A stretch of 19,785 nucleotides of DNA from a virus (Duplodnaviria > Heunggongvirae > Uroviricota > Caudoviricetes). Positions 3,607 through 19,750 of the stretch are shown here, piece after piece. Location: the IMG/VR virus record IMGVR_UViG_3300000301_000085; one strand, given 5' to 3'. Below the pieces are notes generated by a model that made no database searches, was not told the DNA's origin, and saw only the letters and a list, made by a program, of their open reading frames with translations. A program made the translations under genes and the position numbers. How positions within the stretch are numbered: the first letter of the stretch is position 1; each line of letters begins with the position of its first letter.

Positions 3607-4884
3607 TCAGCCCTTTCCAGACGCTCTGCTTTTGTGNNNNNNNNNNNNNNNNNNNNNNNNNNNNNNNNNNNNNNNNNNNNNNNNNNNNNNNNNNNNNNNN
3701 NNNNNNNNNNNNNNNNNNNCAAGCAAGCTATTTACACGCTGGAAGTCATACATTTTTGCGGCACCAGATGAATTATCGATTCCCTGTGCGTTGTCCTGCT
3801 TCGTTCGCTCACCAGCTACACCAACTGAATGGTAGATTTCGTTAATCACCGTCTTAATCGTAGTGATGATCATCTGAGCTTGTTTCGGGTCTGGTGACAG
3901 ATAAAACGGCTGGTTTCCACCTTCAGAATCGTAGGTGAAGACTCGCTTTGTGCCCATTTCAAGCACTTTAGTGTGGTTTTCATCACCAGGTAAAAGCGAC
4001 TGTACCGGTATAGCCAACTGGCTAAATGTCTGATCCTGAATAATGGCATCAAGGTTTGACAGATAGTTTGCAACCGCACGATCAAGATAAGCGATATCAT
4101 CGATCAACGATGGGCTGAAATACGGTGATTCACTTTCTCCAATACAATCAACAGGAAACACAGGAACTACGCCGAGATTATGCTCACCGCTATCCTCTAA
4201 AATAACTTTTGCCTGACGGCGACCTGCTCCACCAGCGCCCTTCTTCACTTCCTCACGGAACAGATACCACTCGTTTTGTGTCCACAGACGATAACGTTGG
4301 TATTCCTGACCTGTAGAAGTAAAAGGATCTGCGTCATCACGAGCGACTTCCACAATTAACGCCCACAACATATTCCCGTCGTCGTCCCATGCCACATCAA
4401 GCATTTGCTGAGGTGAAATCCAGTAGGCGTAGGCGCGAGCATCTTTCTTTTTCTCGTCAGCTACTGACTCAACATCACCACTCATCGTGCTATCGACAAC
4501 AACCCATATGCGACCGTAAATAGACGACTGCAAATCAATAGCGGCCATAAATGAGTCAATAGAGGCATTCTGGCGAGTCGCACGTTTCCAGAAATTGCGG
4601 ATCTGCTCTGGTGCCTCTTCGATATTTCTATGAATGTCTTCTTTAAAGAGATATTTGTTGATGAGGTTTACCACCTCACGAGTGTGGTTGAAGCGATAAG
4701 CACGTTCAACTCGCTCCTTAAACTCCTGATCTCCCTCTTTAAAGTAACGAAAGATATTGTCTGTAAACCAACCACGCCCGCCAGCGTAAGTGCTGGCGAG
4801 GAAGTCCCAATGTTCTTTTTTCTTTTCGTATTCCGGGTGGCGTCGCGCCACCAGATCCTTAATTTGTTTGTCGTTCAATTCCAT
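3607..4884 (-). CDS. putative portal protein
   Basis: 425-aa ORF immediately downstream of terminase large subunit; TAAGGT SD before ATG 4884. Assignment by synteny and size. Confidence 0.6.
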   Translation of the reverse strand: MELNDKQIKDLVARRHPEYEKKKEHWDFLASTYAGGRGWFTDNIFRYFKEGDQEFKERVERAYRFNHTREVVNLINKYLFKEDIHRNIEEAPEQIRNFWKRATRQNASIDSFMAAIDLQSSIYGRIWVVVDSTMSGDVESVADEKKKDARAYAYWISPQQMLDVAWDDDGNMLWALIVEVARDDADPFTSTGQEYQRYRLWTQNEWYLFREEVKKGAGGAGRRQAKVILEDSGEHNLGVVPVFPVDCIGESESPYFSPSLIDDIAYLDRAVANYLSNLDAIIQDQTFSQLAIPVQSLLPGDENHTKVLEMGTKRVFTYDSEGGNQPFYLSPDPKQAQMIITTIKTVINEIYHSVGVAGERTKQDNAQGIDNSSGAAKMYDFQRVNSLLXXXXXXXXXXXXXXXXXXXXXXXXXXXXHKSRASGKG

Positions 4885-6805: not shown

Positions 6806-6838
6806 CTCTAAAACACACAGAGCGCGTCCATGCGCTCT
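6806..6838 (-). terminator. terminator-like hairpin plus U-tract in the leader just before the terS SD (possible attenuator)
   Basis: Plus-strand AGAGCGC-GTCCAT-GCGCTCT (6819-6838); the minus transcript reads hairpin then GUGUGUUUUAGAGGGAUCU-AUG. Confidence 0.45.
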
Positions 6839-6879
6839 AAAACAACTTGTTTACTGCATCTGCTAACCAACTTGTTTTC
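6839..6879. promoter_or_regulatory. two copies of the AACAAcTTGTT palindrome (operator-like) in the late-operon leader
   Basis: AAAACAACTTGTTTA at 6839-6853 and ACCAACTTGTTTTC at 6866-6879; same core as elements upstream of the small genes at 16.6-19.7 kb. Confidence 0.5.
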
Positions 6880-7361: not shown

Positions 7362-8316
7362 TCAGGGTTTCGGTACACACCATACAACGGANNNNNNNNN
7401 NNNNNNNNNNNNNNNNNNNNNNNNNNNNNNNNNNNNNNNNNNNNNNNNNNNNNNNNNNNNNNNNNNNNNNNNNNNNNNNNNNNTGTGAATGTCCTTGAGC
7501 AGCTTCACAATGCTGGCCTCGTCCACCAGACTGTCGGCAATGTCCTGAATCGTCGTGCCACGATTCCGCCCAGCTTTTGCCAGGGAACTGTTCTTATGGT
7601 AGTCCGCCACCAAATCGCGCAGCGCACGGCGACGACGAGACTCGCTCATAGCGAACAACTCTTTGACGATCGCCTCGTTATCACCCGGGTCGGAGCGGAA
7701 ATGGCGCTGGAACACACGCAGTGCACTTTCATAGCTCTTCGGTCGCTCAGGGCGGATGAACTTAAACCCTGCTTTCATGGCGAAGGGATTGTATTTGCTC
7801 ATCGAGGACTGGATCTCAATGATTGGCCGGTCATGCATCCTGCTAACCAGGTTAATCATTCGATAAGAGACGCCTACGCCACGATACTGAGTATCCACAA
7901 CTGAGCGACTGATCACCGCAAAGTTGTTATTCACGTACCGACCCCAGTANNNNNNNNNNNNNNNNNNNNNNNNNNNNNNNNNNNNNNNNNNNNNNNNNNN
8001 NNNNNNNNNNNNNNNNNNNNNNNNNNNNNNNNNNNNNNNNNNNNNNNNNNNNNNTTGGTTTCAACTTAGGAAACATGCGGTGGCGAGGTGCCAACAGTAG
8101 TTTCGGGTAAGCCATAACCACGACGCCCACCAGACGGTCATCAAGTTCGCAGCGATAGTAAGTTGGCGCGAAAGGTTTGCCGTCTGTTTTGTAGTGAAGC
8201 GACTTAAGAGCGTGCCAGTCCTCTACAGTCCCCTTTGTAACAGTCATTCGCTCCAGAAAGTCCAGATGACGCGGAAACTCTTCAGGGCGGTAGCGTTTAA
8301 TGATGATGTCCGTCAT
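7362..8316 (-). CDS. GNAT-fold acyltransferase-like protein with C-terminal extension (interrupted by masked segments 7950-8054 and 7392-7483; frame differs across the first)
   Basis: N-part LVGVVVMAYP (beta strand); C-part FAVISRSVVDTQYRGVGVSYRMINLV (R-G-x-G motif A-like) and NPFAMKAGFKFI (motif B-like); start ATGA-coupled to the upstream ATPase stop (8313-8316). Confidence 0.45.
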
Positions 8317-9064
8317 GAATGGACCTCATCATGAATACCATTGTGATATTCCACCTTCACGCGTTCTTTGTAGTGCTTGGTGATCTGCATATCAGGGCGC
8401 AGCGCGTTCTTCAGGTCTTCGTGAGTCGTCGCCACCATTACCGTCGCACCAACCTTTCGAGCGGCACGCTGGAGGTTAGACGCCACAACCTGAGCGGTTA
8501 CACGGTCGAGAACAGCGCCGAACTCGTCAGCAGCCCATACTTTAGCGCCTGACTCAATCAGTTTGGCAATCTTGAGACGATATTTCTGGCCGTCTGACAT
8601 TTCAGAAGGCTTGCGAACAAACAGATATGCATCGTTCAGACCAGCCATAGATANNNNNNNNNNNNNNNNNNNNNNNNNNNNNNNNNNNNNNNNNNNNNNN
8701 NNNNNNNNNNNNNNNNNNNNNNNNNNNNNNNNNNNNNNNNNNNNNNNNNCGCATCACTGGTCGTTTTGCCCAACTGATCGATGACGTTAACCTCATTATC
8801 GAAGGTAAAATCATCGATGGAGGCTACAGACAGCCCTTCATCCTTCATCTGTCGTTGCAACTCGCGCAGCACAACGGATTTGCCGGAACCGGATTGGCCG
8901 GTGATGTACACCACATCGCCCTGCTTCACTTCCAGCTCCAGATTGTCGTAAAGCGTCCACTCTTTTTCGTCCAGGCCAAGCCCGAACGACTCAGCGATTT
9001 CCAACGTGCGCGTGGTTTTATTTACGCGTGTCTGAAACGATACGTTGATGATGTATTTGCTCAT
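8313..9064 (-). CDS. ABC-type ATPase (nucleotide-binding-domain-like, ~250 aa; two ORF segments, frame changes at masked segment 8654-8749)
   Basis: Walker A YITGQSGSGKS; signature-like SDGQKYRLKIAKL; Walker B/D-loop VWAADEFGAVLD; H-loop MVATTHED; ATGA coupling to the ParB-like gene at 9061-9064. Confidence 0.7.
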
Positions 9065-10491: not shown

Positions 10492-12131
10492 ATGACTGTT
10501 CGGATTGTATCTAACGCAGTAAATGCGCTTATTTCTGGCGCAGATGACAAGGTAAAGCAACTGGTGCAGCAAATGTTGAGCTACGAAGTCGAGACTGGCG
10601 ACTGGAAGGGCACAAGCACGATGTTCAACTGGAGTAAAAACTCGTTCCCTGCTGGCTTTGCCAAGCCTGTAGCGGCGAACTTGAACAAGGCGGGCATCAA
10701 ATGTGTTCATATCCGCAAAGACAAAGCCCCGGCGCTTGGTAAACCAAATCCGGCGGTTAACCCATTCCCATACAATCCTGATTATGCATATCAGGATCAG
10801 ACTGTGGAAACACTGGTTCGAGAGGGAATGATGATTGCGCAGATCGCTACTGGTGGCGGGAAATCTAACGTTGCCTGCAAAGCAGCTGCACGTATCGGTC
10901 GAATGACATTATTTTTAACAACCCGCTCTGTTCTGATGTTTCAAATGGCCGAAAACTTCCAGAGATCCATCGACTACCGCGCCGAAAATGGCGAACCGTG
11001 GTTAAAAGACCAAAAGGTTGGAGTCATTGGCTCGGGTGAGTTCCAGGTATCACGACATATCAACGTCGCTACAGTTCAAACTCTGGCAAGTTTCCTTGAA
11101 GAACCACCACGCGATGCAACACCAGATAAAAAGAGCTACCACCTCAAACGTCGGGAGCTAGTGAAACGCTTCCTTTCAAGTGTGTCTCTGCTTATTCTGG
11201 AAGAAGCGCATGAGTCTTCAGGCTCTAATTTCTATGACATTGCCAGATTATGTGTGAACGCAGACTATCGTCTGGCGCTTACGGCCACGCCGTTCATGAA
11301 GGATTCTACAGAAGCCAACATGCGTCTGATGGCTGTGGCCGGTCGAATTGAAATTAAAGTCACAGAAAAGTACCTGATTGATCGAGGCATTCTGGCAAAA
11401 CCGTACTTCCTTTATCATAAAGTTGCTTACAAGCCAGACGAGGTCAGAATCAAGGCGGAACTTGCCAACAAACACCTTAATTTTAGAGTTGGTATGAGCA
11501 CCGCCTACCAAAAGGCTTATCAGTTGGGGATCGTGTATAATTTGGGACGTAACNNNNNNNNNNNNNNNNNNNNNNNNNNNNNNNNNNNNNNNNNNNNNNN
11601 NNNNNNNNNNNNNNNNNNNNNNNNNNNNNNNNNNAGGCCATAGTGCGCGAGGCATTGCTTTATAAGCAACATTCACTCAACTGCATGACTCTGGTTCGTC
11701 TTAAACGCCACGGGCAAATCCTGATGGAGATGATGAAGGAGTCAGGTCTTAAAGTTGATTTCATCTATGGGGAATCTAACCAGACGACAAGGCAAGCAAA
11801 GCTGAATAGTTTAGCGTCTGGTGAAATAGATGTTTTAATAGGCTCGACTATTCTGGATGTTGGTGTTGATGTGCCAAGCGTTGGTGCGGTCATTCTTGCT
11901 GGTGGTGGGAAAGCAGAAGTTGAAATGAGACAGCGTGTCGGTCGTGGCTTACGAGCCAAAAAAAATCAGGCAAACGTGTGTTTTATCACTGATTTCATTG
12001 ACATTAGCAACAAATACCTGTTGTCTCACTCTTATGAGCGAAAACACATCATCGACACCACACCTGGCTTTGCAGAAGGTGTATTGCCTATTGATGGAGC
12101 ATTCGATTTTGGAGTTCTGAAACGAGATTAG
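10492..12131 (+). CDS. superfamily-2 (DEAD/DEAH-like) helicase; two ORF segments across masked 11554-11634
   Basis: Motif I IATGGGKS; motif II LILEEAHES; motif III LALTATPF; C-terminal motif VI QRVGRGLR; ~110-aa N-terminal extension. Confidence 0.8.
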
Positions 12132-12438: not shown

Positions 12439-12873
12439 ATGAAGTCTCCCATACTGTTCACTTTCTGTTCTAAAACTAACATGAAATACTCGCTTCTCCC
12501 TCTACTAACGTTACCAGTGTTGATGCTTACCGCGTGCCAATCACGTCCAATATCAATCCATGACGCCAAACCAGCACCGCAGGCCAAAGTGTTCAAGTAT
12601 CAAAGCGCAGCGCCAGCTACGTTGGTGGTAATGAGAGACACAGGTTTTGTAGGAGCTGGATGTGATGCTTCCATTTTCATCAATGGCGAAACTGTCGCAA
12701 AACTGGCTACAGGCGAAAAAGCGACTTTTCATTTAAATGCCGGAGAANNNNNNNNNNNNNNNNNNNNNNNNNNNNNNNNNNNNNNNNNNNNNNNNNNNNN
12801 NNNNNNNNNNNNNNNNNNNNNNNNNNNNNNNNNNNNNNNNNNNCTCTTGAAGGTGCAGGTTTATGTGCTCTAA
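12439..12873 (+). CDS. putative lipoprotein (3' end uncertain, masked 12748-12843)
   Basis: GGGAGA SD; hydrophobic signal with lipobox-like LTAC then Cys (MKYSLLPLLTLPVLMLTAC); alternative start at 12481. Confidence 0.55.
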   Translation: MKSPILFTFCSKTNMKYSLLPLLTLPVLMLTACQSRPISIHDAKPAPQAKVFKYQSAAPATLVVMRDTGFVGAGCDASIFINGETVAKLATGEKATFHLNAGEXXXXXXXXXXXXXXXXXXXXXXXXXXXXXXXXLLKVQVYVL

Positions 12874-12909: not shown

Positions 12910-13440
12910 ATGGAGACACAAAAGCGTTCAGGGTGTTCACCAGCAATTCTGGTGACATCGACATTCTGCCAACAACTCTGTGATGACATGACAACCAAAG
13001 ATATTACCTACGGTATCCAAGCTGAACTCTGGCCGCGAGATTACACTAACGTTGAAAAANNNNNNNNNNNNNNNNNNNNNNNNNNNNNNNNNNNNNNNNN
13101 NNNNNNNNNNNNNNNNNNNNNNNNNNNNNNNNNNNNNNNNNNNNNNNNNNNNNNNNNNNNACAAATTCCTGTAAGGGTCACTCTCGAAGATGGCCAGGCG
13201 TTTTGCATGTACGTTTATGGCCTCATGCCATCTCGTAACAAAGTTGACCTTTGCCCAGCCCCTTTTGACAAAGAAAATCGTATAAGGCTCCCACTTGAAC
13301 GCATTAGTACAATTGAATCAGGTGTGGTTGANNNNNNNNNNNNNNNNNNNNNNNNNNNNNNNNNNNNNNNNNNNNNNNNNNNNNNNNNNNNNNNNNNNNN
13401 NNNNNNNNNNNNNNNNNNNNNNNNNTCAAAGGTCGACTAA
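12910..13440 (+). CDS. hypothetical protein(s); two masked segments, continuity unproven
   Basis: Open frame through masks 13060-13160 and 13332-13425; no recognisable motif; weak SD. Confidence 0.3.
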   Translation: METQKRSGCSPAILVTSTFCQQLCDDMTTKDITYGIQAELWPRDYTNVEKXXXXXXXXXXXXXXXXXXXXXXXXXXXXXXXXXXQIPVRVTLEDGQAFCMYVYGLMPSRNKVDLCPAPFDKENRIRLPLERISTIESGVVXXXXXXXXXXXXXXXXXXXXXXXXXXXXXXXXSKVD

Positions 13441-15186: not shown

Positions 15187-15567
15187 ATGTTTGTTCTTAT
15201 CGCTGGCGTTAACGTCCATAATGAATATTATGTTAATCGCATCGCTGGGATAGCTGGTTACGCTGGGCGCTCAGTCGAGTTTATCGATGAAACAACGCGT
15301 AAAATTGATTTATTGAGCGACCAGGAGCGAAAAAAAGCAGACGTGAACGACGCTGATATATTTTTAATGTTAAAAGCGTTTGTAGAAATGGGATTTAAAA
15401 TCAGTTTACACAAATNNNNNNNNNNNNNNNNNNNNNNNNNNNNNNNNNNNNNNNNNNNNNNNNNNNNNNNNNNNNNNNNNNNNNNNNNNNNNNNNNNNNN
15501 NNNNNNNNNNNNNNNNNNNATGGGCGCTTTTTTCGTTTCCAATACTCCCACCATAACGCGCCAATGA
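15187..15567 (+). CDS. hypothetical protein (3' end uncertain, masked 15416-15519)
   Basis: TAAGGAG SD before ATG 15187; N-terminal 76 aa readable; the post-mask tail may be out of frame. Confidence 0.45.
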   Translation: MFVLIAGVNVHNEYYVNRIAGIAGYAGRSVEFIDETTRKIDLLSDQERKKADVNDADIFLMLKAFVEMGFKISLHKXXXXXXXXXXXXXXXXXXXXXXXXXXXXXXXXXXXMGAFFVSNTPTITRQ

Positions 15568-15584: not shown

Positions 15585-15829
15585 TCTTTAACTCACTCCA
15601 ACAACATAAAAATAAGCGCCCAAATAACGCCATAGACGCGCTTTTATATCCTTACCAGTACATACCCATTACTTAACACATTAACGCGCTTAAAACGCGT
15701 TATATTGCGCTATAACGTATGGCTAATCATTGGCTTTTATTCTTGCTATGTGATCCGTGTTTATTTGTCGGCGCGGATCGGCATTTTGTGTTGTTCTGTA
15801 TCCGCTCGCGTATTATGTGCGCGTGATTT

Positions 15830-15872
15830 TTCACATAATCACACCACTTAATCACGTATGTGATTACGCTAC
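15830..15872. promoter_or_regulatory. cluster of TAATCAC/GTGATTA half-sites (operator-like palindromes)
   Basis: GTGATTTTTCACATAATCACACCACTTAATCACGTATGTGATTACGC; TAATCAC-N4-GTGATTA inverted repeat. Confidence 0.35.
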
Positions 15873-15994
15873 GAAAGAAATCTGGATGTCTCAGGTGACG
15901 AAAGTCATCATAATTTTCCCCGCTCACCTGTCCGACAACCGCTGGTTGGATTCCACCAGCTTCCCGATGTTTTTTCTACATAAAGGCGAATGCA

Positions 15995-16108
15995 GCCGTT
16001 TCCCGAAAAAATCCTGGCCGTTTCCCGTCGGCTCATGAATACGTTCCTCGCCGTTTCTGAAAATTTCCCTGCGGCAGCTGGTGGCTATAGAGAAAGGGCC
16101 GTTTCTGG
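15995..16108. repeat. four direct copies of CCGTTTC(C/T) (iteron-like)
   Basis: Copies at 15995, 16018, 16051 and 16099, in noncoding DNA between convergent transcription units. Confidence 0.35.
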
Positions 16109-16111
16109 CCC
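16096..16111 (-). terminator. terminator-like hairpin after gene 16121..16603
   Basis: GGGCC-GTTTCT-GGCCC; the minus transcript continues UUUCUCUAUAG. Confidence 0.4.
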
Positions 16112-16120
16112 TATTCTCAG

Positions 16121-16603
16121 TTACACGCCATCAAGGATGTGGATGCGGTTGCTTGCGTATACATTCAGCATAAAGTTAGCGCAAAACAGTTTCCATGTGT
16201 CAACGCCAGCGGTATACGTAATGTTTTTGCATTTAATCGCATTGTTGGCGATCCGCATCCCCTGCGATACTGCTTCATCGTCGGAAAATTTGAACGACGA
16301 TTGAGTTTTAATCCAGACAGAAATCTGCGTAGCGAACTCAATCAGCTTGGACTGGCAGAATCGCCCGGAGCGCACCGGAAAGACGAACGTTCCGAACCCA
16401 GAATTTACCACATACGCTTTCTCAAATACCCGCGAGTAACGACGATTGCCAATGATGTCGCGTGCAATAATGCATTTTTCTTGTGCTGACAGTTCTACCG
16501 TCTCATTGTCGCGCCATGCACCAAGTACTCGTTTTTCAATGTCAGAGAACGTTACAGCGATATTGCCATGTGCGGGTGCGTTTACAGTAGCGATAAAATT
16601 CAT
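16121..16603 (-). CDS. hypothetical protein (160 aa)
   Basis: AAGGAA SD before ATG 16603; own promoter/operator element upstream. Confidence 0.6.
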   Translation of the reverse strand: MNFIATVNAPAHGNIAVTFSDIEKRVLGAWRDNETVELSAQEKCIIARDIIGNRRYSRVFEKAYVVNSGFGTFVFPVRSGRFCQSKLIEFATQISVWIKTQSSFKFSDDEAVSQGMRIANNAIKCKNITYTAGVDTWKLFCANFMLNVYASNRIHILDGV

Positions 16604-16675
16604 GATTAATTCCTTATCGTAAATAACAAATTGTTTTCTTGTTGGTGTTAATTATCGTTGTACGAATAAGGCGTC
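16604..16675 (-). promoter_or_regulatory. cassette promoter plus AACAAaTTGTT palindrome (element E1)
   Basis: Minus strand TTGACG...GATAAT then AAAACAATTTGTTAT then SD; about 35 nt near-identical to E2 and E5. Confidence 0.5.
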
Positions 16676-16780
16676 AAAGTGGAAAGTTGCGGTAGCCGGA
16701 CGGGAACAGGTGGGTTTGTCGGTTGCCTGGAGGTAAGAGGTTGGTGTTTTTAGCCTGCGGGAAACAGGATGGTCATTTAA

Positions 16781-16800
16781 GGCCACCAGCATTGGTGGCC
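16781..16800 (-). terminator. conserved GC-rich hairpin 8 nt after the stop (terminator-like, weak U-tract)
   Basis: GGCCACCA-GCAT-TGGTGGCC. Confidence 0.4.
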
Positions 16801-16807
16801 TTAATCT

Positions 16808-17089
16808 TTAGTGGAGCAGACCGATGTCGATGGTATCCCCTGAATCATCCACACGGATCATCAGCATGGCAAAGGCGTTTAGTGGATAGCTTGCGTGCCA
16901 TTCAGGGAAGCGGTCATCTCGCATGAAGTCGGCAATGTCGTAAACGCATCCCTCAAAGTGGAAGAATCGCGTGCTTACCTGCTCGTCATAATCCACATGA
17001 TCCATTTCTTGCTGTTCTGTTTCCGGCAAGTCCAGCCATGATTCAAGAAATACATTTTGTGCTTTAGGGGTAATGGTGAAATCAGTCAT
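16808..17089 (-). CDS. small strongly acidic protein (94 aa)
   Basis: GAGGA SD 7 nt before ATG 17089; about 20 D/E against 5 K/R (DLPETEQQEMDHVDYDEQ, RVDDSGDTIDIG). Confidence 0.55.
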   Translation of the reverse strand: MTDFTITPKAQNVFLESWLDLPETEQQEMDHVDYDEQVSTRFFHFEGCVYDIADFMRDDRFPEWHASYPLNAFAMLMIRVDDSGDTIDIGLLH

Positions 17090-17098
17090 GAGCATATC

Positions 17099-17165
17099 CT
17101 CACTGCGTAAACATGTTGTTTTCTTGTTGGTGTAATTATCGCAGTGTAGATAAAGCATAAAAGAA
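17099..17165 (-). promoter_or_regulatory. cassette promoter plus AACAtgTTGTT palindrome (element E2)
   Basis: Minus strand GATAAT then AAAACAACATGTTT then SD; flanked by inverted repeat CACTGCG/CGCAGTG. Confidence 0.5.
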
Positions 17166-17251
17166 GTTAATACAGGCTGAATACACAAGAAAGGTTCTGG
17201 AAGTTGATAGCAAGGTTTCAAACTAACCTTCGGTTATTAAAAGTCATTTAA

Positions 17252-17272
17252 GACCACCAATGCTGGTGGCCT
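17252..17272 (-). terminator. conserved GC-rich hairpin (inverted-orientation copy of the one at 16781)
   Basis: GACCACCA-ATGC-TGGTGGCC, 11 nt after stop 17283. Confidence 0.4.
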
Positions 17273-17282
17273 TAATAATTAT

Positions 17283-17426
17283 CGCCCGATTACGCTAAGG
17301 ATCTTTTCCTCAACTGATTTGTTGTTGCGACTAAACTGCCTTGCGTATCTGATGACAGAAGAGGCGTTTCGCTTTCTGACCATCTCGGCTCTCTCCTTCA
17401 GGCGTTTCTTGAAATCGCCCATATTT
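17283..17426 (-). CDS. tiny basic protein (47 aa)
   Basis: ATG 17426 lies 2 nt after the upstream stop (TAAATATG); MGDFKKRLKERAEMVRKRNASSVIRYARQFSRNNKSVEEKILSVIGR; below the ORF-track cutoff. Confidence 0.3.
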
Positions 17427-17799
17427 ACCACCAGGCGCAGAAGGTCAGTCTATTATTGTGAAAGTCGTGGTTCTTAATCAGATCTTCCACAAGCTCTTTC
17501 AACTCCCCCACATCATGCCAGTAACCTTCATCGTACTCCTGACTGCCGAAGAAAAAACCTTCCCGGGTAGGCAAGTACTCTTCGCAATTACTTTCGTTTA
17601 TGTGCATCAAATGAGCCTTCAGAAAACAAATGTCATTCATCGTTAATTCTAAAAGCTCACAATTTTCGACTTCACCTACGTTGCGCTCCATCCACCCAAC
17701 GAGCGCATTGAACTTACGGAAGTAAGCAACCTGCTTTCTGGATGCCTCGTTATTCAGATCGTTTTTAGGCTGTGTCTCGATATAGATATCAAGTCCCAT
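17425..17799 (-). CDS. small acidic protein (124 aa)
   Basis: AAGGAAACC SD before ATG 17799; E/D-rich. Confidence 0.55.
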   Translation of the reverse strand: MGLDIYIETQPKNDLNNEASRKQVAYFRKFNALVGWMERNVGEVENCELLELTMNDICFLKAHLMHINESNCEEYLPTREGFFFGSQEYDEGYWHDVGELKELVEDLIKNHDFHNNRLTFCAWW

Positions 17800-17849
17800 G
17801 ATGGTTTCCTTATTAAGTTGCTTCAGTGAAATCATTTTCACAAATCAGA

Positions 17850-17876
17850 TAAGGCAGAAAACAAATTGTTATCGGG
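17850..17876 (-). promoter_or_regulatory. AACAAaTTGTT palindrome upstream of gene 17425..17799
   Basis: Plus-strand AGAAAACAAATTGTTATCGG. Confidence 0.4.
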
Positions 17877-17884
17877 CATAAGAA

Positions 17885-17907
17885 AATGGCGCGGTTTACG
17901 CGCCATT
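17885..17907 (-). terminator. intrinsic terminator after gene 17917..18312
   Basis: AATGGCGCG-GTTTA-CGCGCCATT; the minus transcript continues UUUCUUAUG. Confidence 0.55.
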
Positions 17908-17916
17908 CAAAGAGGA

Positions 17917-18312
17917 TTAAGCGAATACGCTTTCAGGGATTAAGGTGTCAGCAGGAATGCCAGAGGTAATGCGCAGGCCGTACTGACCAATCCAGGTAGT
18001 GTTGGTATTCAGGCTGGAGGCGAATACGGTGTTAACCATATTCATCATGGTTTCAAACACCTCTTCATCAACCTGGCGGAAGTAGTTCTCGATTTTCAGC
18101 AGCAGCGGGTCAGTTGCATCGAAAATAGACTGGTATTGAGTCGCGTACTCGCCGCCGGAGGCATCACCTTTACGCACGATCGTACTGGCCTGGACTTCGG
18201 CACCAGTTTCGGTGTTGTACGTAACAACGGTGATTTTTGCCACATTCTTACCTTCGGCGGTTTCAGAGGCATAGTAAACATCAACTGTCAGTTTTTCGCG
18301 TTTAACGGTCAT
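17917..18312 (-). CDS. hypothetical protein (131 aa)
   Basis: GGAGAG SD before ATG 18312 (MTVKREKLTVDVYY...); own promoter; no palindrome element. Confidence 0.6.
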   Translation of the reverse strand: MTVKREKLTVDVYYASETAEGKNVAKITVVTYNTETGAEVQASTIVRKGDASGGEYATQYQSIFDATDPLLLKIENYFRQVDEEVFETMMNMVNTVFASSLNTNTTWIGQYGLRITSGIPADTLIPESVFA

Positions 18313-18345
18313 TTCACTCTCCGTAGTGTTTTGGTTATTTTTATA

Positions 18346-18374
18346 TTCTATGATCGTAAGTATGTACTTACAAT
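18346..18374 (-). promoter_or_regulatory. sigma70-type promoter for gene 17917..18312
   Basis: Minus strand -35 TTGTAA, 16-17-nt spacer, -10 TAGAAT. Confidence 0.5.
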
Positions 18375-18403
18375 ACAAAAAAGCCCCGTAAGGATGGCGG
18401 GGC
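18374..18403 (-). terminator. canonical intrinsic terminator after gene 18439..18750
   Basis: Minus strand GCCCCGCC-ATCCTTA-CGGGGC followed by TTTTTTG. Confidence 0.7.
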
Positions 18404-18438
18404 TGTCGTACGGTCGACTAATTACCACTTGCACATTA

Positions 18439-18750
18439 TCAGGCTATTGCCATCACTGATGCTCTCTGAATCTCTTGCTGGGCCACGCGGTTAACTTCCA
18501 TCAAAGCCAGTTCGAGCTGATGTTCCGGCCACATTCTTTGAAATGCCACCCAGCCTTTTCCACGCTGGCGACGAACATTCATTACATAACGAGTAAAGGT
18601 GTTTTTATCGAAAGACACCGCTGTTTCACGGAACAGACGAATAGAGGTTCCATTGGCAACGATGTCCAGCAAAGTTAATTGAGCAACCAGCGCAGGCTTC
18701 TCTTTTCTCTTCTGGTCTTTGTCCAGACCAAGAACCAATGATTTTTTCAT
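18439..18750 (-). CDS. small basic protein (104 aa), possible nucleic-acid binder
   Basis: GGAG SD before ATG 18750 (MKKSLVLGLDKDQKRKEK...); K/R-rich. Confidence 0.55.
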   Translation of the reverse strand: MKKSLVLGLDKDQKRKEKPALVAQLTLLDIVANGTSIRLFRETAVSFDKNTFTRYVMNVRRQRGKGWVAFQRMWPEHQLELALMEVNRVAQQEIQRASVMAIA

Positions 18751-18830
18751 CACAACTCCGTAAACAACTTGTTTTCTCAATGGCGTAAATAATACCAGTA
18801 AGAAAACGGCTACAAAGCATATTGATCAGG
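18751..18830 (-). promoter_or_regulatory. cassette promoter plus perfect AAACAAcTTGTTT palindrome (element E3)
   Basis: Minus strand TTTGTAGCCGTTTTCTTACTGG-TATTAT then AAAACAAGTTGTTT then SD; about 85% identical to E4 over ~60 nt. Confidence 0.5.
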
Positions 18831-18877
18831 TGCATGAGCGATATGCAGGTTCTTCCCTGCGGCTACAGATTAAGTTA

Positions 18878-18894
18878 AGCCAGCAATGCTGGCT
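18878..18894 (-). terminator. conserved hairpin after gene 18905..19234
   Basis: AGCCAGCA-A-TGCTGGCT, followed on the plus strand by TTGATTGTGATTACGC. Confidence 0.4.
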
Positions 18895-18904
18895 TTGATT
18901 GTGA

Positions 18905-19234
18905 TTACGCGAATACCTCAAGAAACTCCTGAACGTCCCAATGCTGGACGAGGTGAAGATAGACCTTAGAAATCACGTCATTTTCGCTATCGCATGTGAA
19001 GTAGTACTTCTGGCTGCGGTTGTATGTGTCCACACAAAATTCGCTCATATCCATAAAGTCAGCATCTTCACCCATGTCGCAAATCATCAAAGCAGGTGCG
19101 TCATCACGAGTCATCAGCTCAAGCACCCACCGCGAATTGATCAGAGTGGAAGACCAACCTTCTAACTCATAAAACTGATCAAACTCTTTTTGAGTTAATT
19201 TCTTGATTTGGTTGATGTCGATATTTGCAAACAT
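18905..19234 (-). CDS. small acidic protein (109 aa)
   Basis: AAGGA SD 7 nt before ATG 19234 (MFANIDINQIKK...); D/E-rich (MICDMGEDADFMDMSEF). Confidence 0.55.
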   Translation of the reverse strand: MFANIDINQIKKLTQKEFDQFYELEGWSSTLINSRWVLELMTRDDAPALMICDMGEDADFMDMSEFCVDTYNRSQKYYFTCDSENDVISKVYLHLVQHWDVQEFLEVFA

Positions 19235-19310
19235 AAAGCAATCCTTAAACAACTTGTTTTCTGAATTGCGTAAACAATACCAGTAAGAAAACGGCCACAA
19301 AGTATATCGT
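19235..19310 (-). promoter_or_regulatory. cassette promoter plus AAACAAcTTGTTT palindrome (element E4)
   Basis: Minus strand TTTGTGGCCGTTTTCTTACTGG-TATTGT then AAAACAAGTTGTTT overlapping the SD. Confidence 0.5.
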
Positions 19311-19349
19311 TACGGTGCTGCGCTGCCCCGGAGGTTAATAGCGACAAAA

Positions 19350-19366
19350 GCCACCGTGCTGGTGGC
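19350..19366 (-). terminator. conserved GC-rich hairpin after gene 19374..19670
   Basis: GCCACC-GTGCT-GGTGGC, 8 nt after the stop. Confidence 0.4.
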
Positions 19367-19373
19367 CTCACTC

Positions 19374-19670
19374 TTAATCTTCGTCGTCCGGGAACTCGCT
19401 GTGTACCGCGCCCACCAGCTCCCGCTTTTCATCTTCACTCAGCAGGTGCCAGATATNNNNNNNNNNNNNNNNNNNNNNNNNNNNNNNNNNNNNNNNNNNN
19501 NNNNNNNNNNNNNNNNNNNNNNNNNNNNNNNNNNNNNNNNNNNNNNNNNNNNNNNNTTCTGCCGGGACGAACGACCACAACTTGCGGTACAACTCCGGCC
19601 CCACTGCATCCAGACACTCAGCCAGGGAATCCACGCCCCACACCTCAACCGTCACAGGCATCTTAATCAT
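19374..19670 (-). CDS. small acidic protein (about 98 aa, middle masked 19457-19556)
   Basis: GAGGA SD before ATG 19670; acidic C-terminus EFPDDED. Confidence 0.5.
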   Translation of the reverse strand: MIKMPVTVEVWGVDSLAECLDAVGPELYRKLWSFVPAEXXXXXXXXXXXXXXXXXXXXXXXXXXXXXXXXXXIWHLLSEDEKRELVGAVHSEFPDDED

Positions 19671-19750
19671 CTCTTCATCCTCACTTCGTTTCTATAACGT
19701 CTAAATATGTTGTTTACTTGTTGGTGTTATTATCGAAATAAGACAAAGGC
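19671..19750 (-). promoter_or_regulatory. cassette promoter plus AAtAtgTTGTT palindrome variant (element E5)
   Basis: Plus-strand AAATATGTTGTTTACTTGTTGGTGTTATTATCG, near-identical to E1 and E2. Confidence 0.45.

Follow-up and report, generated by a model that had tools for sequence, protein, structure and literature searches.

Ugi, p56, T7 Gp2, AcrIIA4 and AcrF2 are small alpha/beta inhibitors that occupy nucleic-acid sites, and among the small mimics Ugi, p56 and AcrIIA4 are likewise compact alpha/beta proteins. A different kind of phage accessory gene is the moron, an autonomous promoter-ORF-terminator cassette of temperate phages; classical morons are expressed in the lysogen. Mimicry of DNA by ArdA has been described by a geometric criterion, namely helical carboxylate ribbons that superimpose on the DNA phosphates (PMC2731889), and ArdA has homologs in the sArdA proteins (PMC12548430). 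The folds of known mimics are unrelated, and Ocr, the gp0.3 protein of phage T7, remains active after losing much of its charge (PMC3439906). In the EVADES catalogue, DNA mimics make up 11 of 268 characterised anti-defence proteins (10.1101/2025.06.06.658234). DefenseFinder detects almost no known anti-defence genes in elements of the SSU5 group (10.1101/2025.09.12.675607), so that an anti-defence role has no assigned gene in these elements.

The window analysed here, meaning the whole stretch of DNA under study, comprises 19,785 nucleotides of the IMG/VR virus record IMGVR_UViG_3300000301_000085. Its positions 15600-19450 are 100% identical to the E. coli plasmid pTHO-010-2 (113 kb, IncFIB, non-mobilizable), and Escherichia phage Cyrano, an SSU5-like phage-plasmid of strain LF82, matches at 98.7% identity over 95% of the query, the match stopping at window position 19262. 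Weaker matches were obtained to Salmonella phage SSU5 and to relatives from Klebsiella, Enterobacter and Yersinia. On these matches the window is assigned to an SSU5/pHCM2-type phage-plasmid of E. coli. Its left part carries genes for capsid, portal, terminase, a ParB-like protein and a helicase, and from about 16.1 kb to the right end it contains a row of small genes on the minus strand. Masked bases number 1,070 and fall into 11 N-runs (1884-2001, 3637-3719, 7392-7483, 7950-8054, 8654-8749, 11554-11634, 12748-12843, 13060-13160, 13332-13425, 15416-15519 and 19457-19556). Past the right end of the window, in pTHO-010-2 21541-34978, small genes go on together with genes for a DUF1380 protein, metG, apbC, an S24 LexA-like peptidase that is strongly macrophage-induced in Cyrano, a Pol III theta homolog, ead/Ea22-like proteins, DUF4942 and TerB; this is a long accessory region in which phage and plasmid character are mixed.

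Within the row of small genes, the gene for a 93-aa acidic protein occupies positions 16808..17089 on the minus strand. It starts with an ATG at 17089, is preceded by a GAGGA Shine-Dalgarno sequence at 17097-17101 and consists of 93 codons plus stop (282 nt). The ORF is a genuine, constrained gene, because pairwise dN/dS values against the orthologs of SSU5, pMT1 and Klebsiella are 0.07-0.15 (dS 0.18-1.6) and the 282-nt frame is kept exactly in SSU5, Yersinia pestis pMT1 and a Klebsiella phage-plasmid. The sequence-only reading of this DNA had pointed to the strong acidity of the product, and this holds: the 93 residues include 20 Asp/Glu against 5 Lys/Arg (net charge -15, pI 4.11), and both acidic peptides that it quoted, DLPETEQQEMDHVDYDEQ and RVDDSGDTIDIG, are found in the protein. 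No other of the 49 proteins annotated in the matching 36-kb region is as acidic.

The PHROG 1845 HMM matched the protein over its full length (E 7.8e-59; residues 1-93 on profile positions 1-93 of 93). Orthologs are SSU5_115 in SSU5 and CYRAN_110 in Cyrano, along with genes of Y. pestis pMT1 and of Klebsiella phage-plasmids, and homologs of at least 68% identity occur in SSU5-like elements only. A profile search of 1.84 billion cluster representatives returned 74 at E <= 1e-3, mostly of 85-105 aa, and the family consensus reads MxIxTNxxxRxxxxWxDLTxxExxEFDY...FFRYxGxxYDxxxFMR...WxG...AFSGxLI...GDxVxVG. When tblastn was run on PLSDB, the family was detected in 629 plasmids, essentially all SSU5-like; of these plasmids, 607 are non-mobilizable. 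Among 5,426 complete E. coli genomes, 113 have the E. coli allele, plasmid-borne every time. Cultured phages with a family member are virulent or large phages of Edwardsiella, Vibrio, Pseudomonas, Marinobacter and Rhodococcus, in which the gene always lies within a run of small hypothetical genes. An Erwinia phage member is represented in BFVD, and IMG/VR holds 173 relatives. The PHROG 1845 family, as sampled by these searches, appears to be phage-only. Of 51 IMG/VR contigs of at least 30 kb, 15 have the family gene in the outermost 5% at either end, where 10% would be expected (binomial P ~1e-4). This position fits a terminal early or accessory region, and assembly breaks in variable DNA could contribute to it. 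Across 80 IMG/VR loci the recurrent neighbours are DUF932, a DUF2201 metallopeptidase/VWA protein, Kyano_Gp96, an AAA-like protein and many small unknown ORFs; no established anti-defence gene was found among them.

Database annotation adds little to this picture. Pfam (E <= 0.1) and NCBIfam scans of eight array proteins, including the 93-aa protein, gave no match, the PHROGs scan of the same eight returned solely families of unknown function, and none of them matched a PADLOC-DB defence-system model. Single-sequence and profile searches of the PDB with the 93-, 124- and 109-aa proteins of the array yielded nothing significant; a cytochrome b5 domain (E 0.077), LRR repeats and a multicystatin (no passing stretch) were discarded as matches at chance level. 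Longer members of the 93-aa family carry a DUF6839 fragment as their sole extra domain, which is uninformative. A literature search by accession and PHROG number retrieved just an incidental mention of the accession of the pMT1 ortholog, under another hypothetical protein and without functional annotation. Many RefSeq/GenBank records name the orthologs "ABC transporter"; this label was rejected for a soluble protein of 93 aa in which neither a transporter nor an ATPase domain is detectable, and it has evidently spread between records as an annotation error.

An AlphaFold model of the 93-aa protein built from an alignment of close orthologs only reached a pLDDT of 73, and an AF2 model with a 59-sequence family alignment reached a pLDDT of 91.7 and a pTM of 0.76. 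Predicted strands span residues 6-14, 40-45, 48-51, 66-69, 75-80 and 86-92, with two short predicted helices at 23-28 and 34-37, and the protein is modelled as single-domain, compact and beta-rich. A Foldseek search of BFVD returned two matches only, both of them family members (TM 0.82), and these independently modelled relatives corroborate the predicted fold; the PDB fold search with the model gave no match. Conserved residues of the family are mainly aromatic or hydrophobic, to which an acidic set is added, and the alignment contains no enzyme-like motif. Across the 59 members, acidic residues are retained in 52-97% of sequences at eight or more positions: D20 (92%), E25 (68%), E28 (88%), D30 (86%), D33-E36 (52-72%), D54 (86%) and D85 (97%), at a mean column identity of 16%. 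Extreme charge is not a conserved feature of the family, since net charge spans 0 to -0.19 per residue (median -0.076): some members are nearly uncharged (net 0 to -2), the member from Pseudomonas phage UAntarctica has a net charge of -4 over 106 aa, and that from Rhodococcus phage NiceHouse has -8. What the alignment indicates as conserved is a local acidic ridge, not an extreme total charge.

From the acidic composition, DNA mimicry had been proposed for the 93-aa protein and perhaps for the other acidic ORFs, with carboxylates that imitate the phosphate backbone; such a protein would fill the DNA-binding groove of restriction proteins or of other defence proteins that bind DNA, and phage-plasmid DNA would thereby be protected on entry. 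An Asp/Glu excess is necessary yet unspecific for this class, and the 93-aa protein has such an excess. Some known small mimics (Ugi, p56 and AcrIIA4) are equally compact alpha/beta proteins. The acidic segment at residues 20-39 is conserved, as are D54 and D85, and the family is confined to phages, where it is encountered in early-type regions; in SSU5-group elements no known antirestriction gene was found. The proportion of 20 acidic to 5 basic residues in 93 aa is also of the same order as in Ocr, with 34 to 6 in 116 aa (PMC3439906). High acidity is, however, frequent in unrelated small phage ORFs, and acidic composition is thus an unspecific criterion: about 3 of 22 small ORFs in early regions of phage UAntarctica and 3 of 10 in those of phage NiceHouse have a net charge of -0.118 per residue or lower. 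Several family members are nearly uncharged, including that of UAntarctica at -4, the gene evolves slowly, and few known anti-defence proteins are mimics (11 of 268), which gives a low base rate. Sequence, profile and fold comparisons, moreover, found no match to known mimic or antirestriction families (Ocr, ArdA, ArdB/KlcA, Gam, Ugi and others). All these comparisons came out neutral to mildly negative for the proposal. Absence of homology and variable charge do not refute mimicry, because known mimics differ in fold and Ocr tolerates loss of charge. Mimicry fits the charge and the ridge; nothing beyond composition suggests that the 93-aa protein imitates DNA, and we regard this explanation as improbable. 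A broader claim would make the protein the founder of a new-fold family of nucleic-acid mimics or broad anti-defence inhibitors, with the acidic helix-loop-helix at residues 20-39 as the DNA-like surface and with a span from the phage-plasmids of E. coli, Salmonella, Klebsiella and Y. pestis to virulent phages of Pseudomonas, Vibrio, Edwardsiella, Erwinia and Rhodococcus; this strikes us as very doubtful.

Three further ORFs of the array had been described as similarly acidic, and their net charges of -12 (17425-17799), -13 (18905-19234) and about -10 (19374-19670) bear this out. In net charge per residue the four acidic ORFs rank 1, 2, 3 and 7 of the 49 annotated CDS of the 36-kb region, with a hypergeometric probability of 1.7e-4 for this post-hoc grouping. 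The same array encodes basic proteins of 160 aa (pI 9.2), 50 aa (pI 11.3) and 103 aa (pI 10.5). The gene for the 124-aa acidic protein (phrog_7971; 17425..17799, minus strand; 23 acidic and 11 basic residues) belongs to a widespread, mostly metagenomic and unannotated family, for which no Pfam or PDB relative was found. Its members share invariant G2, D4, F27, N31, G81 and F84 and the motifs MGLD(I)YF, FRKxN and LPTxEGFFFGSxEYDExY, and their net charge per residue varies from -0.008 to -0.148; with such invariant Gly/Asp/Asn/Phe motifs, a defined site for binding or catalysis seems likelier than charge mimicry. The 109-aa acidic protein (phrog_7645; 18905..19234, minus strand; 21 acidic, 8 basic) is represented by 10 clusters only, all at least 74% identical, and appears to be an orphan limited to E. 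coli-type SSU5-like elements. The fourth acidic-protein gene (phrog_6757; 19374..19670, minus strand) has 98 codons, 34 of them hidden by the N-run at 19457-19556, and 15 acidic and 5 basic residues are counted among the 64 visible ones. Its orthologs in pTHO-010-2 and SSU5 are 71-72 aa long, that of pTHO-010-2 having 71 aa and a net charge of -10. The product ends in an acidic C-terminal tail, ...SEFPDDED (19374-19394), which seems loosely similar to the acidic C-terminal tip of bacterial SSB (DDDIPF).

HMMs of the 93-aa and 124-aa families, run against all ORFs of the window and of related loci, matched their own genes only, so neither family has a paralog among the array ORFs, and by sequence comparison the four acidic ORFs appear to represent four unrelated families. 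This is what would be seen if acidity were incidental, that is, if these were ordinary small soluble phage proteins of unrelated function whose charge has no mechanistic role. The regional proteome is itself acidic (median about -0.03 per residue, with the ParB-like and terS-like proteins near -0.10), and net charge varies widely within both larger families. Yet particular acidic columns of the 93-aa family are 86-97% conserved where mean column identity is just 16%, and the SSU5 clade has lost basic residues of the family consensus at R13 (now V), R44 (now H) and K46 (now E), so that these sites carry a neutral or acidic side chain. This shift suggests that greater negative charge has been selected. 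We give incidental acidity a small probability.

The cassettes of the array share a layout of conserved upstream block with palindrome, Shine-Dalgarno sequence, ORF and hairpin. In the 93-aa gene the conserved upstream block (17097..17140, minus strand) comprises a GATAAT box preceded by TGC (17135-17140, minus strand), the palindrome GAAAACAACATGTTTAC (17107-17123, minus strand) and the Shine-Dalgarno sequence. The palindromic element GAAAACAAnnTGTTT, with the core AACAAnnTTGTT, stands ahead of almost every cassette gene at 15-35 nt before the start codon (about 55 nt in the 124-aa gene), and in several cassettes a GATAAT box lies directly upstream of it. It also occurs twice before the terS-like gene (6838-6879), at the head of the terminase/portal/capsid packaging operon. 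Sites are located at 6838-6879, 16622-16638, 17107-17123, 17857-17873, 18760-18776, 19245-19261 and 19701-19717; the motif has 15 matches against 1.3 expected, a number that none of 200 shuffles reached. A phage regulator probably binds the palindrome and in this way couples the cassette genes to the packaging operon. A sigma-70 consensus scan found no promoter for the 93-aa cassette, and a standard sigma-70 promoter at its GATAAT box was rejected, as the best -35-like hexamers are spaced at 14-15 nt and the scan makes no call there. The upstream block is best described as a putative promoter, operator or both. The one cassette promoter called by the scan belongs to the 131-aa gene (18373-18345, TTGTAA-17-TAGAAT). 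That gene (17917-18312, minus strand) has no palindrome in its upstream region, is flanked by strong hairpins and may be regulated differently from its neighbours.

Cassettes terminate in GC-rich hairpins. Right after the stop codon of the 93-aa gene lies a terminator-like hairpin, TTAAGGCCACCA..TGGTGGCCTTAA (16777..16804, minus strand), of which a copy at 17248-17275 ends the next cassette. That cassette contains the 124-aa gene and a small basic ORF of 47-50 aa (17279..17431, minus strand; pI 11.3; Cyrano ortholog CYRAN_109), which overlaps the stop of the 124-aa gene. The segment holding the two genes (17279-17841) is missing at the same position in the SSU5, pMT1 and INF334 Klebsiella loci, and a homolog of the 124-aa gene is found in other Klebsiella SSU5-like elements. 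Because hairpin-bearing repeats of 39 nt (16772-16810 and 17243-17281) bracket this cassette, which is absent there in three relatives, the arrangement suggests that cassettes move via recombination at terminator repeats.

Expression of the 93-aa gene can be read from its Cyrano ortholog. In LF82 RNA-seq data re-analysed for Cyrano, CYRAN_110 has 6.7 normalised counts in LB lysogens against a local median of 9.8, and in macrophages it is about 8-fold up (log2 5.7-6.1) along with CYRAN_105-108 and CYRAN_111, while CYRAN_119-122, the ParB-like and ABC-ATPase genes, stay low (PMC9928086 Table S1). The gene behaves like a repressed gene freed under stress, with the limit that induction in macrophages is not a lytic time course. 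Since CYRAN_110 is at the floor in LB lysogens, below the local background, the 93-aa gene is not a lysogen-expressed moron, and the classical moron model was discarded (PMC9928086 Table S1). The basic ORF CYRAN_109 reaches 58 FPKM in LB lysogens, about 6-fold over background, and the gene just upstream is at the floor (PMC9928086); such a difference implies that there is an internal promoter, or else that the RNA is a stable processing product or a small RNA.

The conserved core of the array consists of the 93-aa gene and its downstream neighbour, the gene for the 160-aa basic protein (phrog_1641; 16121..16603, minus strand; pI 9.2), whose adjacency is kept in SSU5, pMT1 and Klebsiella phage-plasmids as other cassettes come and go. 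The 93-aa protein might accordingly serve the phage-plasmid itself, as a replication, regulation or assembly/packaging factor, perhaps together with the 160-aa neighbour. Such a role would fit a gene that is found almost throughout the SSU5 group and is under strong purifying selection there, and the upstream palindrome is common to the 93-aa gene and the terS/terminase operon. However, distant phages have a member of the 93-aa family without the accompanying 160-aa family, and the gene lies among non-essential-looking small genes near genome ends. It is, moreover, intact in pMT1, a plasmid that is not known to produce phage. We consider a role internal to the phage-plasmid unlikely on balance, though a serious competitor.

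The reading that we tentatively prefer, at somewhat less than even confidence, is that the 93-aa protein acts at induction or infection and blocks a protein of the host or of a rival element by means of its conserved acidic ridge. We infer this blocking role from the size, charge, distribution and timing of the protein. Judging by its ortholog, the gene is silent during maintenance of the plasmid-prophage and switched on with its neighbours under stress; the product would then act stoichiometrically, early after infection or induction, by binding its target. The ridge formed by D20, E25, E28, D30, D33-E36, D54 and D85 would dock onto a basic surface of that target, possibly one that binds nucleic acid, and strict DNA mimicry would be one sub-case of this mechanism. 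Consistent with a blocking role are the constrained gene, its phage-only spread, its place in runs of small genes, the lack of an enzyme-like motif, the conserved acidic set, the compact and confident model, the induction of the ortholog and the near-absence of known anti-defence genes from SSU5-group elements. Arguing against it, the near-universal presence and slow evolution of this SSU5 core gene are explained by a housekeeping function in the phage no less well than by an anti-defence arms race, and the recurrent neighbours (DUF932, DUF2201/VWA and AAA-like proteins) include no established anti-defence gene.

SSU5/pHCM2-type phage-plasmids are frequent in clinical Enterobacteriaceae. The 93-aa allele is carried by about 2% of complete E. 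coli genomes, and relatives also occur in Y. pestis pMT1 and in plasmids of Salmonella and Klebsiella. The protein is a reasonable candidate for how SSU5-type elements establish in new hosts. Should it turn out to inhibit a host protein of defence or DNA handling, it would represent a new structural class and offer a testable handle on the host range of phage-plasmids. At present it is one among many uncharacterised small acidic phage proteins, and a "DNA mimic" label derived from composition should not be propagated.

Compared with described systems, what is new at this locus is an uncharacterised family with a predicted fold that has no solved relative, and what is familiar is a small acidic accessory protein in a phage gene cassette. 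The closest relation is to PHROG 1845, of which the protein is a full-length member and which has neither a Pfam entry nor a solved structure. The array resembles morons in that every small gene comes with a conserved upstream block and a terminal hairpin of its own and in that cassettes are gained and lost between relatives, but it differs from them in expression, since LB lysogens show only background levels of CYRAN_110, the Cyrano counterpart of the 93-aa gene (PMC9928086). Like Ocr, the 93-aa protein is small, phage-encoded and strongly acidic with few basic residues (34 acidic against 6 basic in Ocr, 20 against 5 here; PMC3439906), and both are encoded amid early-type accessory genes. 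With ArdA/sArdA and ArdB/KlcA it would share the character of an acidic mobile-element protein expressed on entry; unlike them, it has no Pfam match (E <= 0.1) and no PDB profile or fold match, and membership in the ArdA/sArdA group was rejected in the absence of homology. Its likeness to Ugi, p56, T7 Gp2, AcrIIA4 and AcrF2 lies in a size of about 60-120 aa, in acidity and in a stoichiometric mode of action, which for the 93-aa protein is presumed, and it extends to the predicted structure, a single compact domain in which an antiparallel sheet is combined with short helices.
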